DNA of 25,516 bases from a virus (lineage: Duplodnaviria > Heunggongvirae > Uroviricota > Caudoviricetes): the IMG/VR virus record IMGVR_UViG_2671180439_000001, one strand, 5' to 3'. The notes beneath the pieces were generated by a model. It saw only the letters and a program-made list of their open reading frames with translations, did no database searches and was not told the origin of the DNA. How positions within the stretch are numbered: the stretch's first letter is position 1; each line of letters starts with the position of its first letter. This document shows, piece after piece, positions 2,909 to 7,326 of this stretch. The translations under genes were made by a program, and so were the position numbers.

Positions 2909-3045
2909 TATATGGCTGATTTATAATTGTGAGTTTAATATTATATTGACTCACTCATTGATCCAATACCTAACTTTACCAGCAACACCTCCGCCCCCAG
3001 TAGCACTGGCTGCTGGGGTGCGTTTTATTCATAAAGCAAGGCTGT

Positions 3046-3834
3046 ATGAGCGAGAAATTAAAGATAGTCTATCGCCCATTACAAGAATTGTCACCGTATG
3101 CGCACAACGCCAGGACGCACAGTACTGAGCAGGTGGCACAACTGGTAGAAAGTATTAAGCAATTCGGCTGGACTAATCCGGTGCTGATTGACGAAAAGGG
3201 CGAAATTATTGCGGGTCACGGTCGTGTTATGGCGGCTGAAATGCTCAAAATGGATTCTGTTCCGGTCATTGTTCTGTCTGGCCTGACGGATGATCAGAAA
3301 AAGGCGTACCGCCTGGCAGATAATCGCCTACCGATGAATGCTGGCTGGGATGAAGATCTGTTGCGGATGGAGCTGTCGGACCTAATCAATGCTGATTTTG
3401 ATGTCTCCCTGACAGGCTTCGGCCCGACAGAAATTGATGAACTGTTGACGGATGTTTTGCCCGGTACAGGAAATAAGGAGGAGCCGTATACGACGAAAAT
3501 TGATACGCCTGTTTATGAGCCGTCGGGCGGTAAACCGGATATCAGTGAACTGTACGACGATACGAAAACTCAGGAGCTGATCAGCCGGATACGTTCGGCG
3601 TCCCTTGATCCTGATATTGAGAAATTCCTCCTGTGTGCGGCAGAACGTCACACGGTGTTTAATTTCAGCAGAATTGCGGACTATTACGCTCATGCCCCCG
3701 CTGAAATTCAGTGCCTTTTCGAGGAGTCGGCGCTGGTGATCATTGATTATCAGCAGGCTATTGAAAATGGATTTGTCCGAATGACGCAGCGCATGGTGGC
3801 GATCATGCATAGCGGGGAGGAGGAATATGCGTGA
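3046..3834 (+). CDS. ParB-like nuclease domain protein (ParB/sulfiredoxin N-terminal fold)
   Basis: 262-aa ORF. N-terminal region KLKIVYRPLQELSPYAHNARTHS...IIAGHGRVMAA...VPVIVLSGLTDDQKKAYRLADNRL resembles the ParB N-terminal domain; the C-terminal half is acidic with no recognised domain. Confidence 0.7.
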   Translation: MSEKLKIVYRPLQELSPYAHNARTHSTEQVAQLVESIKQFGWTNPVLIDEKGEIIAGHGRVMAAEMLKMDSVPVIVLSGLTDDQKKAYRLADNRLPMNAGWDEDLLRMELSDLINADFDVSLTGFGPTEIDELLTDVLPGTGNKEEPYTTKIDTPVYEPSGGKPDISELYDDTKTQELISRIRSASLDPDIEKFLLCAAERHTVFNFSRIADYYAHAPAEIQCLFEESALVIIDYQQAIENGFVRMTQRMVAIMHSGEEEYA

Positions 3835-4759
3835 TGATTTTTGCGCCTTTATTCTGACTCACGGGCGACCGGACAAAGTTCTGACTTACCGGACGTTGCG
3901 TCGTGCTGGCTATACCGGGAAAATTTTTATCGTTGTTGATGATGAAGATAAGACACGGCATCAGTACATGGCTGAATTTGGTGAACAGGTGCTGGTATTT
4001 TCCAAAGCAGATATTGCCAGTCGTTTTGACGAAGCCGATAATTTTGGTGACCGCCGCTCAATTTTTTACGCCCGTAATGCCTGTTTCGACCTGGCAAAAC
4101 TGGTCGGGTGTAAATACTTCATTCAGCTCGATGATGATTATCACGAGTTCCAGTTTCGGGTGGATCGCAACTATGACCAGGCCTATTTCCCGATAAGGAA
4201 ACTGGATGCGATCCTTTCTGAAATGCTGGCGTATTACGAATCAATACCCGCGCTTTCCATCGCTATGTCGCAGGGCGGGGATTTTCTTGGTGACAATGGC
4301 GGCCATGCTTCGTGGGTGAAACGCAAGGCAATGAACAGCTTTATCTGTTCGGTTGATCGACCGTTCTCATTCATGGGGCGCATTAACGAGGATGTGAATA
4401 CGTACACGAATCTCGGTCGCCGTGGTGAATTGTTTATGACGATCGGTGCTGTCCAGTTAGGGCAGAAACAGACGCAGAAAAACAGCGGCGGAATGACCGA
4501 GCTGTATCTGGATTCCGGGACCTACGTTAAAAGTTTTTATTCCGTCATGTATGCGCCGTCGTGCGTAAAAATCTCACTGATGGGCGCCAGCCATAAACGC
4601 ATTCACCATCAGGTCACCTGGAACAACGCTGCAGTAAAAATCCTTCACGAAAAATACAGGAAGAAGACACCCTGCATATTAATGGGGGTGACAAATGATT
4701 CCGTATTCGAAAGTCGAGTCTCTGGCAGCGTGCCGGATGACTGCACAACAAATCGCTGA
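3827..4759 (+). CDS. Hypothetical protein with GT-A-like glycosyltransferase signature (two acidic motifs), possible nucleotide-sugar transferase; function unknown
   Basis: 310-aa ORF overlapping the ParB-like stop by 8 nt, GGAGGAGGA Shine-Dalgarno just upstream. Motifs KIFIVVDDEDKT (3932-3949 region) and YFIQLDDDY (LDDD at 4127-4138) resemble the Asp-rich and DxD motifs of GT-A fold (GT2-like) enzymes. No transmembrane segments seen. Confidence reflects the functional guess; the gene itself is well supported. Confidence 0.5.
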   Translation: MRDDFCAFILTHGRPDKVLTYRTLRRAGYTGKIFIVVDDEDKTRHQYMAEFGEQVLVFSKADIASRFDEADNFGDRRSIFYARNACFDLAKLVGCKYFIQLDDDYHEFQFRVDRNYDQAYFPIRKLDAILSEMLAYYESIPALSIAMSQGGDFLGDNGGHASWVKRKAMNSFICSVDRPFSFMGRINEDVNTYTNLGRRGELFMTIGAVQLGQKQTQKNSGGMTELYLDSGTYVKSFYSVMYAPSCVKISLMGASHKRIHHQVTWNNAAVKILHEKYRKKTPCILMGVTNDSVFESRVSGSVPDDCTTNR

Positions 4760-4946
4760 CGTTCTGGATGTTGATCTGAACCGACTGAAAGAAAATCGGG
4801 AAGCAATGACAAATTTTTACGCGTCCATCCGTAAGGGCAGAGCGAAAGGTGAAGCCGAGCTACGGGCGGCATTGTTTAAGCTTGCCAGAAAAGGGGATGC
4901 CTTTGCCCTACGCGAACTACTCAGGGTGGATAAAAATCAGGACTAA
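4695..4946 (+). CDS. Hypothetical small protein, possible helix-turn-helix DNA-binding protein preceding the terminase genes
   Basis: 83-aa ORF ending 4 nt before TerS. Segment MTAQQIADVLDVDLNRLKEN looks HTH-like. Its 5' end overlaps the preceding gene by 65 nt, so the real start may be the internal ATG at 4737. Confidence 0.35.
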   Translation: MIPYSKVESLAACRMTAQQIADVLDVDLNRLKENREAMTNFYASIRKGRAKGEAELRAALFKLARKGDAFALRELLRVDKNQD

Positions 4947-4949
4947 CTG

Positions 4950-6044
4950 ATGAGCAGACCGGACTGGGGGGCGTTGCAGCAGGAGTATATTGCTGAATAC
5001 ACCCGCTCCGGTATATCTCCGGTGGCATGGTGTGAAGCAAGGGGACTGAATTACGCAACAGCCCGTCGTTACATCAAAAAACCTCCGAAAAATGCGCAGA
5101 CAGAAATGCGCAAAACTGCGCAAAAAAGTGCGCAGAAAAAATCTGCGCAGACTGCACAAAAGCGGAACGGAAAATCTCAGGAAAAAAAGCCAGTATCCGA
5201 TGCGTACCTGAATGAGGGCGATGCGGAAGAAATTTCGTTCTGTCCCGATGAATTCGGCGTTTCTGACCAGCAGGCGAAATTCGCAATGCTGGTTGCCCAG
5301 GGGAAAAAACTCGTTGAGGCATATCGCCTGGCAGGATACGAGTCAGAGGGGAATGCGGCCTACGTAACCGCCAGCCAGCTCCTAAGAAATCCTAAGGTTT
5401 TTCGTGCTATCAGCTACTTCCGCAATCAGTACCAGAAACGCTATACCGCAGACCTGGATTTACTGGTGAGTCAGTTGATGGCCATTGTCCAGGCCGACCC
5501 CAATCAGTTGGCACAATTTCGCCGTGTTAACTGCCGTTATTGCTGGGGCGAGAATCATCACTACCAGTGGCGCGATATAGCAGAATTCGATAAGGCAGCG
5601 GCGCAGGCCTCCAGAGATGGCAAACCCGAGCCGGAATATGGTGGCCTTGGCTTTGTTGATAACGCCATACCCAATCCGGACTGCCCGAAGTGCTGCGGTG
5701 AGGGAACGGGGCAGCTTTATATGGCTGATACCACTCTGCTTGATGGGGAAGCGCGGCAATTATATGCAGGGGCAAAGCTCGGAAAATTTGGTGTTGAGAT
5801 CCTGCTGGAGGATAAGGCTGCCGCCCGGCGTGAATTGTTGCGTTTGCTTGCTGCTGGTGGGGCTTTATGTGCAGATAAGCGGCTACAGGAACTGGAAATT
5901 GAACGGCGCAGAATGGAAAACCAGAAGCTGCGCAAAGAGATCGAAACGGTGGAAGATAATGAACATCCCCAACCTGTGGCGATCAATATTAATGTGGTTG
6001 ATGCCAGAGTAAGGAGTGATGAAGATGATCTCTCCGACGCTTAA
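4950..6044 (+). CDS. Terminase small subunit (Terminase_2/P27-like core) with N-terminal HTH and Cys-rich zinc-ribbon-like segment
   Basis: 364-aa ORF directly upstream of and overlapping the large terminase. Region SDQQAKFAMLVAQGKKLVEAYRLAGYESEGNAAYVTASQLLRNPKVFRAI fits the small-terminase pattern; N-terminal HTH-like segment (SPVAWCEARGLNYATARRYI); low-complexity K/A/Q linker; CRYC...CPKCC motif; C-terminal coiled coil. Confidence 0.75.
   Translation: MSRPDWGALQQEYIAEYTRSGISPVAWCEARGLNYATARRYIKKPPKNAQTEMRKTAQKSAQKKSAQTAQKRNGKSQEKKPVSDAYLNEGDAEEISFCPDEFGVSDQQAKFAMLVAQGKKLVEAYRLAGYESEGNAAYVTASQLLRNPKVFRAISYFRNQYQKRYTADLDLLVSQLMAIVQADPNQLAQFRRVNCRYCWGENHHYQWRDIAEFDKAAAQASRDGKPEPEYGGLGFVDNAIPNPDCPKCCGEGTGQLYMADTTLLDGEARQLYAGAKLGKFGVEILLEDKAAARRELLRLLAAGGALCADKRLQELEIERRRMENQKLRKEIETVEDNEHPQPVAININVVDARVRSDEDDLSDA
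5093..5149 (+). repeat. Array of five TGCGCA(G/A)A palindromic-core repeats inside the 5' part of the TerS gene (candidate pac/TerS recognition site)
   Basis: TGCGCA occurs at 5093, 5107, 5117, 5129 and 5144, spaced 10-15 bp, each followed by G/A then A. Confidence 0.5.
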
Positions 6045-7326
6045 TGTGCCTCAGGCGCGATTTCTTTCAATGCCCCACAAATTTAAAGCCTATGTCGCTG
6101 GTTTTGGCTCGGGTAAAACATGGATTGGGTGTGGTGGCATATGCAAGGGGATTTGGGAACATCCTGGTATAAATCAGGGATATTTTGCGCCAACGTATCC
6201 CCAAATTCGCGATATTTTTTACCCTACAGTGGAAGAAGTTGCTGCTGACTGGGGATTGAACGTAAAAATTAATGAGGGAAATAAAGAGGTTCACTTTTAT
6301 TACGGACGCCAGTATCGGGGAACCACTATCTGCAGATCGATGGAGAAGCCGCAAACGATCGTCGGTTTCAAAATTGGTAATGCGTTGGTGGATGAACTGG
6401 ACATTTTGCCGAAGGAAAAAGCCAGAACGGCGTGGCGCAAGATAATTGCGCGTATGCGTTATAAGATTGATGGACTTCGCAACGGTATTGACGTTACAAC
6501 CACGCCGGAAGGATTCAAATTTGTCTACGAGCAGTTTGTTAAAGCCGTGCGTGAAAAAACAGAGCTGGCCTCACTGTATGGTCTGGTGCAGGCATCTACT
6601 TTCGATAATGAAAAGAACCTGCCAGCAGATTACATTCCTTCGCTTCTTGAATCATACCCTCCAGAGCTGATTAAAGCCTATCTTCGAGGACAGTTTACTA
6701 ACCTGACAAGTGGTACTGTTTACCATCAGTTTGACCGGAAACTGAATAATTGCGAAGAAGTGGAGCAGCCAGGGGAGCCGATTTATATTGGGATGGATTT
6801 TAACGTTGGAAAGATGGCGGGAATCGTCCATGTGCTGCGTTTGGGGCTTCCATGTGCGGTAACTGAAATCATCAATGCCTACGATACGCCGGATATGATC
6901 CGCATCATTAAAGAACGCTTCTGGCTGTATGACGGGAATGATTACCGGAAAGTGAGGGAGATTTATATTTATCCAGATGCTTCCGGAGATTCCAGAAAAT
7001 CAAGTAACGCAAGTACGACGGATTTAGCCCAGCTTAAGCAGGCTGGTTTTAACGTTGTGGTGAACAGCTCGAACCCGCCAGTAAAAGATCGCGTTAACTC
7101 AATGAATGCAATGTTCTGCAATGCCAATGGCGAACGTCGCTATAAAGTTAATGTGAAGCGTTGTCCGGTATATGCCGAATCTCTGGAGCAACAGGTCTGG
7201 GATGATAAGGGGGAGCCTGATAAAAAATCAGGCAACGATCACCCGAATGATGCCGGAGGCTATTTCATCGTTAAGCAATTCCCTATTATCAAACCGACCG
7301 GAAGAGTCACATCACTTCGGATTTAA
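6025..7326 (+). CDS. Terminase large subunit (PBSX/Terminase_3-like ATPase-nuclease)
   Basis: Walker-A-like GFGSGKT near the N-terminus, acidic DELD (Walker-B-like), C-terminal nuclease-like region (IYIGMDFNVG). Start placed at ATG 6025, which has an AAGGAG Shine-Dalgarno 8 nt upstream; the ORF track starts at GTG 6016. Confidence 0.85.
   Translation: MISPTLNVPQARFLSMPHKFKAYVAGFGSGKTWIGCGGICKGIWEHPGINQGYFAPTYPQIRDIFYPTVEEVAADWGLNVKINEGNKEVHFYYGRQYRGTTICRSMEKPQTIVGFKIGNALVDELDILPKEKARTAWRKIIARMRYKIDGLRNGIDVTTTPEGFKFVYEQFVKAVREKTELASLYGLVQASTFDNEKNLPADYIPSLLESYPPELIKAYLRGQFTNLTSGTVYHQFDRKLNNCEEVEQPGEPIYIGMDFNVGKMAGIVHVLRLGLPCAVTEIINAYDTPDMIRIIKERFWLYDGNDYRKVREIYIYPDASGDSRKSSNASTTDLAQLKQAGFNVVVNSSNPPVKDRVNSMNAMFCNANGERRYKVNVKRCPVYAESLEQQVWDDKGEPDKKSGNDHPNDAGGYFIVKQFPIIKPTGRVTSLRI

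Follow-up and report, generated by a model that had tools for sequence, protein, structure and literature searches.

Iyer and colleagues are said to have defined the TAGT family of glycosyltransferases (GTs) in 2013 and to have predicted for it a role in DNA glycosylation. To our knowledge, all known glycosylated DNA bases (glucosyl- and arabinosyl-hydroxymethylcytosine (hmC), base J, and the 5-hydroxymethylcytosine (5hmC) glycans of phages) need a prior hydroxymethyl group. Here we describe a TAGT enzyme and a ParB-like protein encoded by two overlapping genes, open reading frames (ORFs) A and B, at positions 3046–4759 of a 25,516-nucleotide stretch of viral DNA (IMG/VR record IMGVR_UViG_2671180439_000001); this whole stretch is referred to as the window. 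We put about even confidence in the reading that the pair is a late-expressed, two-subunit, TET-independent glycosyltransferase, most likely acting on DNA.

Phage GT-A enzymes have been shown experimentally to glycosylate 5hmC in DNA; their best match in the PDB is TarP, they carry the motif R...DDD...EDY/F, and the approximately two-thirds of phage GT contigs that have no nearby hydroxymethyl-forming enzyme were set aside in that study as less obviously DNA-hypermodifying (bioRxiv 10.1101/2023.12.21.572611). Experiments have also demonstrated that a ParB-like protein activates a phage DNA thymine dioxygenase, this protein being needed specifically on double-stranded DNA (dsDNA) (O'Toole et al. 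2026, PMC13229309). An older proposal, as quoted elsewhere, is that ParB proteins guide the machinery of DNA modification during packaging. The combination of ParB with a DNA-modifying enzyme near the terminase has been published both as a prediction and, for dioxygenases, on the basis of experiment. A preliminary description of the window did not recognise the pair as a characterised system. This stands to the extent that we found no description or test of a TET-less TAGT coupled to an acidic C-terminal domain in the searchable literature, which does not cover the paper defining TAGT; the pair is not wholly unrecognised, because its GT family was named for predicted DNA glycosylation and ParB-like partners have been published.

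The glycosyltransferase and its partner

ORF A (3046..3834, 262 aa) is full-length YnaK, labelled in RefSeq as ynaK or as a ParB/Srx family N-terminal domain protein, and ORF B (3827..4759, 310 aa) is the TAGT gene. Both have ATG starts and both lie on the plus strand, as do the sites and motifs given below. The two co-oriented genes had been described as overlapping by 8 nt, with a Shine-Dalgarno sequence for the second inside the first, and both features were confirmed: the overlap (ATGCGTGA, 3827..3834) places the start of ORF B over the stop of ORF A (TGA at 3832–3834), and the Shine-Dalgarno sequence (GGAGGAGGA, 3816..3824) is found within ORF A, 2–6 nt before the ORF B ATG. This stop-start overlap predicts translational coupling of the two genes.

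The preliminary description had likened ORF B to GT-A enzymes on the basis of two acidic motifs arranged like an Asp-rich motif and a DxD motif. Both motifs are real and have invariant core Asp residues, and a profile match, a predicted structure and a fold search together identify ORF B as a GT-A enzyme with a DxD. ORF B matches the Pfam family TAGT (PF20691) over residues 8–222 (E 5.8e-36; 124.8 bits against a cut-off of 27.5), a match present on every ORF B homologue listed, and it also matches phrog_842 (E 1e-103). The name given to ORF B by PGAP is sometimes 'GREB1-related protein'. A first AlphaFold2 model made from 15 close homologues was poor in its C-terminal half, with a predicted local distance difference test (pLDDT) score of 62.7, and was superseded by a model from 64 sequences with a pLDDT of 88.9 and a predicted TM-score (pTM) of 0.84. 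When this model was compared with the PDB by Foldseek, the best match was TarP (E 4.9e-6), and further matches included RmlT, LARGE1, LH3, SunS, AvpGT, GpgS, glycogenin, GnT-I and SpsA. The top 50 PDB matches were nearly all GT-A glycosyltransferases, the remainder being GT-A-like nucleotidyltransferases (ADP-glucose pyrophosphorylase). Among viral models (BFVD) the best matches were TAGT proteins (TM 0.78–0.86), and a T4-like beta-glucosyl-HMC-alpha-glucosyltransferase also matched ORF B in structure (E 6.9e-8, TM 0.59/0.65). A sequence search of the PDB with a TAGT protein gave no match.

Conservation of the active site was read from an alignment of the 15 sequences and from one of the 64 sequences, which extends down to 39% identity. 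The R...DDD...ED pattern begins with the invariant R14 (THGRP, 3866..3868). It is followed by D38-D39-E40-D41 (VVDDEDKT, 3938..3949), with D38/D39 at the C-terminal end of strand beta2 (E32-38) of the model, and by D102-D103-D104 (LDDDY, 4130..4138), which end strand beta4 (E97-102). According to the model, these two motifs would occupy the canonical GT-A sites, the first providing the nucleotide-binding Asp and the second the DxD that binds metal and diphosphate. The last motif, N187-E188-D189 (NEDV, 4385..4393), is the counterpart of the catalytic 'EDY/F' motif, its third residue in ORF B being V190 and not Y/F. R14, D41, D102, D103 and D189 are invariant across the 64 sequences and D104 nearly so; D38, D104 and E188 are invariant in the 15-sequence alignment. 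The ORF B subfamily has an additional conserved, subfamily-specific C-terminal subdomain at approximately residues 215–285 (HKRIHH), in which an invariant His pair, H260-H261 (4604..4609), is a candidate third metal ligand. The E. coli protein extends approximately 20–25 codons beyond the common end of its homologues; this tail is non-conserved, has a pLDDT below 50 at residues 303–310, and resembles an extension produced by read-through. Sequence, fold and motifs all place ORF B in TAGT. The genomic association after which the family is named is lacking in its case.

The closest described enzymes are the phage GT-A enzymes associated with TET/5mYOX (TAGT; Burke et al. 2021, PMC8256090; bioRxiv 10.1101/2023.12.21.572611). 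ORF B shares with them the Pfam family, the GT-A fold, TarP as the best PDB match and the R...DDD...ED pattern, and enzymes of both kinds are phage-borne and often found near ParB and terminase genes. Unlike these enzymes, ORF B has no C5-methyltransferase/TET, thymine-dioxygenase or hydroxymethylase partner, and its subfamily adds the C-terminal subdomain and an obligate acidic partner domain, neither of which is described there. ORF B is also in the same PHROG and Pfam family as the T2/T6-type beta-glucosyl-HMC alpha-glucosyltransferase, for which PHROG 842 is labelled and of which a T4-like phage orthologue matches it in structure; both are soluble. The TAGT members of T4-like Aeromonas phages are only approximately 23–26% identical to ORF B. 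The T-even-type enzymes add a second glucose to glucosyl-hmC, with the hmC made before replication, and act without a ParB-type partner, whereas this pathway is missing here.

ORF A consists of a ParB/Srx N-domain, an acidic linker and a conserved acidic C-terminal domain, in that order. It is strongly acidic, with an isoelectric point (pI) of 4.6 and a net charge of about −21, and the C-terminal domain by itself has a pI of 4.5; ORF B has a pI of 8.4, close to the TAGT family median of 8.6. The ParB/sulfiredoxin-type N-terminal domain that had been attributed to ORF A was found above the Pfam cut-off (ParB_N, PF02195; E 1e-6, 29.1 bits against 26.3). With its helical extension it covers residues 1–140 (3046..3465), the ParB/Srx N-domain proper being residues 1–100, and its PDB matches are the N-domains of Spo0J, ParB and Noc (E 4e-5 to 0.2). 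ORF A matches phrog_620 (E 6e-90); in addition, residues 3–141 match phrog_498 'DNA methyltransferase' (E 3.4e-51) and residues 10–141 match positions 13–148 of the 436 in the PADLOC model MTase_II (E 1.2e-38). Both of the latter matches end at residue 141, and no methyltransferase domain (N6_N4_Mtase or other) was found in ORF A by Pfam scan. The N-terminal module of approximately 140 residues is clearly homologous to that of phage ParB_N-DNA methyltransferase fusions (Kaljevic et al. 2025, PMC12704722), and both kinds of protein are enriched in prophages. In ORF A an acidic domain of approximately 115 aa takes the place of the methyltransferase domain of the fusions, and the effector is a protein of its own, to which ORF A is translationally coupled.

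Of the features of a canonical ParB CTPase, ORF A has the ParB_N fold but lacks the GERR box II, the helix-turn-helix (HTH) domain and the ParA partner. Box I reads N21-A-R23 and box II G57-H-G-R60 (GHGR), so that in E. coli a His replaces the catalytic Glu of GERR. Among 28 partner proteins the ParB N-domain was variable, some having a box II without Arg (NGVYEQ, NKTHNK) and some a box I without Arg. A Pfam scan detected no HTH parS-binding domain in ORF A, there is no ParA gene in the neighbourhood, and the TIGR00180 score of 36.8 is below the cut-off of 58.45; together with the degenerate box II, these results led us to reject ORF A as a partition ParB.

The C-terminal domain (3481..3834, approximately residues 146–262, about 115 aa) was much better conserved across the 28 partners than the ParB N-domain. 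It is characterised by the motif YTxKIxxPxYEP...FLxxAAxRHxVFNY..IADYYAH...SALVIIDxxxAIxxGF, and includes Tyr, Pro, Arg, His, Glu and Asp residues that stay invariant all the way from E. coli to the haloarchaeal virus HHTV-2. No match to this domain was found in Pfam, NCBIfam or the PDB, a PDB profile search giving chance-level matches only. A profile made from the domain retrieved 1208 proteins, many of them stand-alone versions of approximately 130 aa, whose gene again lies 5' of TAGT in its contigs. The stand-alone gene overlaps TAGT in loci L129, L130 and L140, is separated from it by one gene in L132 and L139, and by a gap of approximately 116 nt in Vibrio phage phiKT1024. ParB_N is encoded by a separate upstream gene in L132 and L140, and none of the annotated neighbours in L129, L130, L139 and phiKT1024 was seen to have a ParB domain. 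It is the C-terminal domain, rather than the ParB domain, that forms the invariant partner in this TAGT subfamily. The pairing of a ParB-like protein with a GT was thus correctly noted in the preliminary description, with the qualification that the ParB/Srx domain is not the conserved element of the partner.

A partner conserved to this degree might itself be the substrate. The acceptor would then be a protein, most plausibly the partner, glycosylated in a glycogenin-like manner at an invariant Tyr/Thr of YTxKIxxPxYEP, or some other universal protein, and the ParB module would not serve DNA modification. Consistent with this, the C-terminal domain is the sole other component as conserved as the GT, residues Y148, Y157, P155 and P159 are invariant within an apparently extended segment, translational coupling is conserved, glycogenin is found among the fold matches of ORF B, and the contexts and genomes searched (see below) contain no DNA acceptor pathway. 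The glycogenin match is no better, however, than those of dozens of GT-A enzymes, and all characterised members of the phage and kinetoplastid lineage act on DNA. The ParB module is moreover common to DNA methyltransferases, and the genomic context consistently consists of DNA packaging, replication or methyltransferase genes. We consider a protein acceptor unlikely.

Conservation of the pair and its position ahead of packaging genes

A scan of viral contigs yielded only near-identical E. coli loci, and a diversity set was therefore drawn from one genome per species. This gave 42 loci from at least eight phyla, with TAGT at 46–81% identity; a full-length ORF A homologue was directly 5' of TAGT in 40 of them, the other two having missing upstream DNA or a truncated TAGT gene. 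With metagenomic contigs and cultured phages added to the species scan, the set comprised 52 loci. The partner was 5' of TAGT in 50 of these and immediately adjacent in 48. In 46 its stop overlapped the start of TAGT, the overlap being 11 or 8 nt in nearly all cases. The co-occurrence in relatives that the preliminary description had named as a check is thus upheld; the arrangement is far beyond chance, and the pairing is obligate. Fusions of ParB with TAGT were looked for and none was found. A search with the ParB N-module was dominated by truncated E. coli copies and did not reveal distant architectures.

The hosts of the pair are Proteobacteria, Bacteroidota, Firmicutes, Actinobacteria, Planctomycetes, Ignavibacteria, Chlorobi and Saccharibacteria, to which the archaeal host of HHTV-2 is added. 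Cultured carriers are the Lactobacillus delbrueckii phages c5, phiLdb and PMBT4, L. gasseri phage phi jlb1, Nocardia phage NTR1, Vibrio phages of 191–195 kb, and HHTV-2, a tailed virus. The TAGT subfamily forms at least 8000 clusters when grouped at 90% identity and 1334 when grouped at 50%, and its members are 42–57% identical between hosts as far apart as E. coli, Bacteroides, Nocardia and Haloarcula. Conservation over such distant hosts implies a universal acceptor, be it DNA, some other nucleic acid or nucleotide of universal occurrence, or the partner conserved alongside TAGT, and argues against host-specific envelope polymers or highly diverse capsid proteins.

These data bear on whether the pair could serve prophage defence or superinfection exclusion, by glycosylating and so crippling incoming foreign DNA or, as TarP does, by modifying a cell-envelope polymer. 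TarP, the best PDB fold match, is a prophage-encoded N-acetylglucosamine (GlcNAc) transferase of wall teichoic acid, a preprint mentions that prophage GTs might carry out antiviral hypermodification, and the pair is very widespread among E. coli prophages: 1580 of 5426 complete E. coli genomes gave a match, and 889 have a near-full-length pair (16–29%). Against such a role, the hosts have unrelated envelopes and include one archaeon, the GT has no PADLOC match, and it is soluble and without a membrane partner. The module is situated in the late operon beside the terminase and not in a moron expressed during lysogeny, separated by a terminator-like hairpin from trkG and without a better-than-chance promoter of its own, and phage c5 carries the pair although its complete annotated genome has neither an integrase nor a CI-type repressor. 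Seroconversion of the envelope was rejected on the basis of the late-operon setting, the unrelated host envelopes and the soluble enzyme without membrane partner, and we regard defence or exclusion more generally as very unlikely.

Decayed versions of the pair were also encountered. In the Rac prophage of E. coli K-12 only the first 89 residues of ORF A remain and TAGT is absent; ydaY of K-12, considered as a remnant of ORF A or ORF B, was rejected because it has no homology at the protein level. Many E. coli strains have truncated ynaK frames that run into fragments of Lom, tail-fibre-assembly or minor-tail genes (also L137 4378–4981), and we take these to be footprints of independent deletions in decaying Rac prophages. 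In the dairy L. delbrueckii phages phiLdb, Ld17, LL-Ku and Ld25A, TAGT is split in two, truncated, or survives only as its last 45 codons, joined to the ParB gene. Decay of the module is thus evident in some lineages.

The position of the module was examined in the 29 loci with enough flanking DNA, taking three co-directional downstream genes and three upstream genes from each. Large terminases were found 3' of the module, belonging to Terminase_6N (12), Terminase_3 (8), GpA (1) and TerL_ATPase (1), along with several kinds of small terminase and portals. The terminase families are unrelated, indicating that the module usually heads the packaging operon whatever the packaging machinery. The same layout of module followed by packaging genes is repeated in Pfam-annotated contigs, and phage c5 has its cos site followed by ParB, TAGT, terminase small subunit (TerS) and terminase large subunit (TerL), in this order. 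Upstream genes are mixed (single-stranded DNA-binding protein (SSB), VRR-NUC, DnaB, lysis genes), and C-terminal-domain-only versions adjoin DNA methyltransferases or replication genes.

The preliminary description had also suggested an accessory nuclease module for packaging. ORF A would then be a nuclease or site-recognition factor for the terminase, in the manner of the HNH proteins that accompany HK97-like terminases, and the GT would be an unrelated passenger. The historical domain label 'ParB-like nuclease' and the position of the pair directly before the terminase genes in most loci favour this idea, as does Nocardia phage NTR1, whose annotation shows no small terminase of its own lying between the pair and TerL. 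The evidence from the family points the other way. The downstream terminases are of at least four unrelated families and have small subunits of their own, HNH genes coexist with the pair in some loci, and C-terminal-domain-only versions lie far from any terminase. The ParB N-domain shows the weakest conservation of all, is missing from many loci or encoded apart in them, and loses its conserved arginines in several members; in the loci examined, the partner was in no case found without the GT. A packaging nuclease thus finds no support in the family, and we judge it highly improbable.

The window itself represents the late part of a Rac-type lambdoid E. coli prophage, and the stretch with the pair is 100% identical to that of E. 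coli strain S1-INA-02-A, which has its prophage at the ttcA site. As had been stated, the terminase directly follows the pair, TerS (364 aa) being encoded at 4950–6044 and TerL at 6016–7326, both on the plus strand; portal, MuF-like protein, coat and then tail genes are found 3' of TerL. Upstream, the lysis genes lysozyme/Rz/Rz1 (355–1313) are 5' of a trkG moron (1433–2908), a full-length potassium transporter of the TrkH family (E 6e-144) located between the lysis cassette and the packaging genes. A terminator-like hairpin with a T-run (2995..3018, plus strand; 10-bp stem with 7 GC pairs, tail TGCGTTTTAT) forms the boundary between the trkG moron and the pair. Promoter-like matches near the pair were no more frequent than in shuffled sequence in a scan of the window, and this, along with the hairpin after trkG, is consistent with transcription of the pair by late read-through.

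An 83-aa ORF (4695..4946, plus strand) shares 65 nt (4695–4759) with the tail of ORF B. It matches the small-terminase PHROG phrog_309 (E 2.5e-22), aligning to the middle part of it, and belongs to the packaging context, outside the module. TerS has a low-complexity stretch rich in Lys, Gln and Ala at approximately residues 43–80. The small terminase may be split here over two genes, the 83-aa ORF and TerS. In the early region of phage ON470595 (L002 26064–29457), an intact Rac-like phage, a gene for an AAA+ ATPase (384 aa) is followed by one for an S8 subtilase (738 aa), a pair that looks like an anti-phage defence cassette.

The acceptor and the sugar

Several observations weigh against DNA as the acceptor. 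Neither a TET/JBP enzyme (PF12851) nor a thymidylate-synthase-type hydroxymethylase (PF00303) was found among the flanking genes of the 29 loci; the same two enzyme types were absent from eight Pfam-annotated contexts covering 8–10 kb on each side of the module, from the complete 31.8-kb genome of phage c5 and from one complete Rac-like phage. Characterised relatives glycosylate a hydroxymethyl group or a sugar already borne by DNA, so that the known chemistry would have no substrate here. Modified DNA of Rac-like phages or of c5 is unreported in the searchable literature. The partner is strongly acidic and has no recognisable DNA-binding domain, and the nucleoside triphosphate (NTP)-binding arginines of its ParB domain are lost in several family members. 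The decay or splitting of TAGT in several dairy phages and its loss from K-12 indicate that it is dispensable under laboratory conditions. GREB1, which is placed in the superfamily of TAGT and JGT, is reported to be a protein O-GlcNAc transferase, which would favour a protein acceptor.

With no source of 5hmC or 5-hydroxymethyluracil (5hmU), a DNA acceptor would be a canonical base, a host-modified base or another group in DNA. A C5-methyltransferase is found within a few kb of the module in two loci, and in one locus TAGT directly adjoins an SNF2-N6/N4 methyltransferase; methyltransferase genes are not a constant feature of the surroundings of the module.

Other genes and domains associated with TAGT suggest further elaboration of the first sugar, like that in the published 5hmC-glycan clusters. 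TAGT is sometimes fused to a second TAGT-like or GT domain, to a class-I S-adenosylmethionine (SAM) methyltransferase, to a sulfotransferase, and to a Walker-A-bearing domain. The last is an N-terminal domain of approximately 180 aa in proteins P0155, P0184 and P0196, with a Walker-A-like motif (GxxxxGKS) and no Pfam match; from its sequence it is tentatively read as P-loop kinase-like, recalling the kinases of thymidine-hypermodification clusters. Tandem TAGT paralogues follow one ParB partner in locus L115 (3587–6137), and proteins P0146 and P0148 each have two TAGT-like domains, which suggests the stepwise addition of two sugars. A phage with the pair has three or four consecutive GT2-family genes right after its major capsid gene (L125 17837–20316), suggesting a longer glycan or glycosylation of the virion. 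In locus L132 (2603–3556), a gene for a fusion of histidine-phosphatase and cytidylyltransferase-like domains is inserted between the C-terminal-domain gene and TAGT, and this enzyme may make the nucleotide-sugar donor.

The same insertion could be taken to indicate an RNA or nucleotide substrate. The acceptor would in this case be the bases of tRNA or rRNA, or free nucleotides, and the pair would reprogramme translation or nucleotide pools late in infection. The high conservation across phyla implies a universal substrate, which these would be, and AvpGT, a nucleoside-glycosylating enzyme (with Ara-A), is among the better fold matches (TM 0.45–0.47). On the other hand, the inserted nucleotidyltransferase is more simply explained as an enzyme that activates the donor sugar, the module has no association with RNA-binding or tRNA-related domains, and both the homology to ParB-methyltransferases and the adjoining terminase point to dsDNA. 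We regard an RNA or nucleotide acceptor as quite unlikely.

A proposed mechanism and its significance

In our proposal of a late-acting DNA glycosyltransferase, the elements that the analysis shows are the GT family and fold, the conservation of the catalytic motifs, the obligate pairing, the coupling of the genes, their position before the terminase, and the lack of a hydroxymethyl-pyrimidine-forming enzyme in the contexts and genomes searched. We infer the acceptor, the two-protein complex, the timing of expression and the biological purpose as follows. ORF B would serve as the catalytic subunit: a GT-A enzyme from the TAGT/JGT lineage, dependent on metal and taking its sugar from a nucleotide-sugar donor. 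Its obligate partner would be ORF A, with the C-terminal domain made stoichiometrically by way of the overlapping stop and start; this acidic domain may bind or activate the basic GT. The ParB/Srx N-module, where present, would link the enzyme to phage DNA in its double-stranded form. Because the pair would be expressed with the late operon, directly before the terminase genes, newly replicated phage DNA would be marked just before packaging, and the mark could protect the DNA or make it recognised in the next host, the logic being that of Mu Mom and of late phage methyltransferases.

That the ParB module points to DNA rests on its homology to the ParB-methyltransferase fusions, on the ParB-activated thymine dioxygenase and on the older proposal for a role of ParB during packaging. 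In the dioxygenase systems (PMC13229309) the partner likewise consists of a nucleotide-binding N-domain and a C-terminal domain without a DNA-binding domain, it is required by a subclass of these dioxygenases, enzymes that modify DNA post-replicatively, its NTP-site residues are non-essential, and GT, ParB and terminase genes co-occur. The likeness of these dioxygenase activators to ORF A is one of architecture and gene adjacency only. The systems differ in that the enzyme here is a glycosyltransferase, that no 5mYOX is nearby, and that the C-terminal domain is found without the ParB N-domain.

In phage Mu, Mom carries out a late-expressed DNA modification just before packaging that is thought to protect the DNA in the next host. 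The pair resembles it in logic only, Mom being a single acetyltransferase-like protein of an unrelated family that forms N6-carbamoylmethyl-adenine. A stricter form of our proposal is that the C-terminal domain and TAGT together are a self-sufficient DNA glycosyltransferase, which places sugar onto a canonical or host-methylated base, or onto another DNA group, without prior hydroxymethylation. If so, the modification would be of a class not known before, borne by tailed viruses of bacteria and archaea and by a prophage found in 16–29% of complete E. coli genomes. We advance this version tentatively and think it rather doubtful.

A phage GT beside a ParB-like gene will not surprise specialists; the interest of the pair lies in its obligate partner domain, the missing acceptor-making enzyme, its reach into archaeal viruses, and its occurrence in about a quarter of E. 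coli genomes. It constitutes a sharply defined and very large subset of the orphan phage GTs that have no hydroxymethyl-forming enzyme nearby, the traits of this subset being a fixed acidic partner domain, frequent coupling to ParB, translational coupling of the two genes, and placement at the head of the packaging operon. Tractable models are available in the Rac-like prophages of E. coli, for which K-12 is a natural null background, and in c5, a small phage of Lactobacillus. Should the acceptor be something other than DNA, the label 'beta-glucosyl-HMC-alpha-glucosyltransferase' would be wrong for thousands of database entries. If DNA is the acceptor, the pair would represent a second case, after the thymine dioxygenases, of ParB-fold cofactors for DNA-modifying enzymes, and would carry out a new modification chemistry in tailed viruses of both bacteria and archaea.

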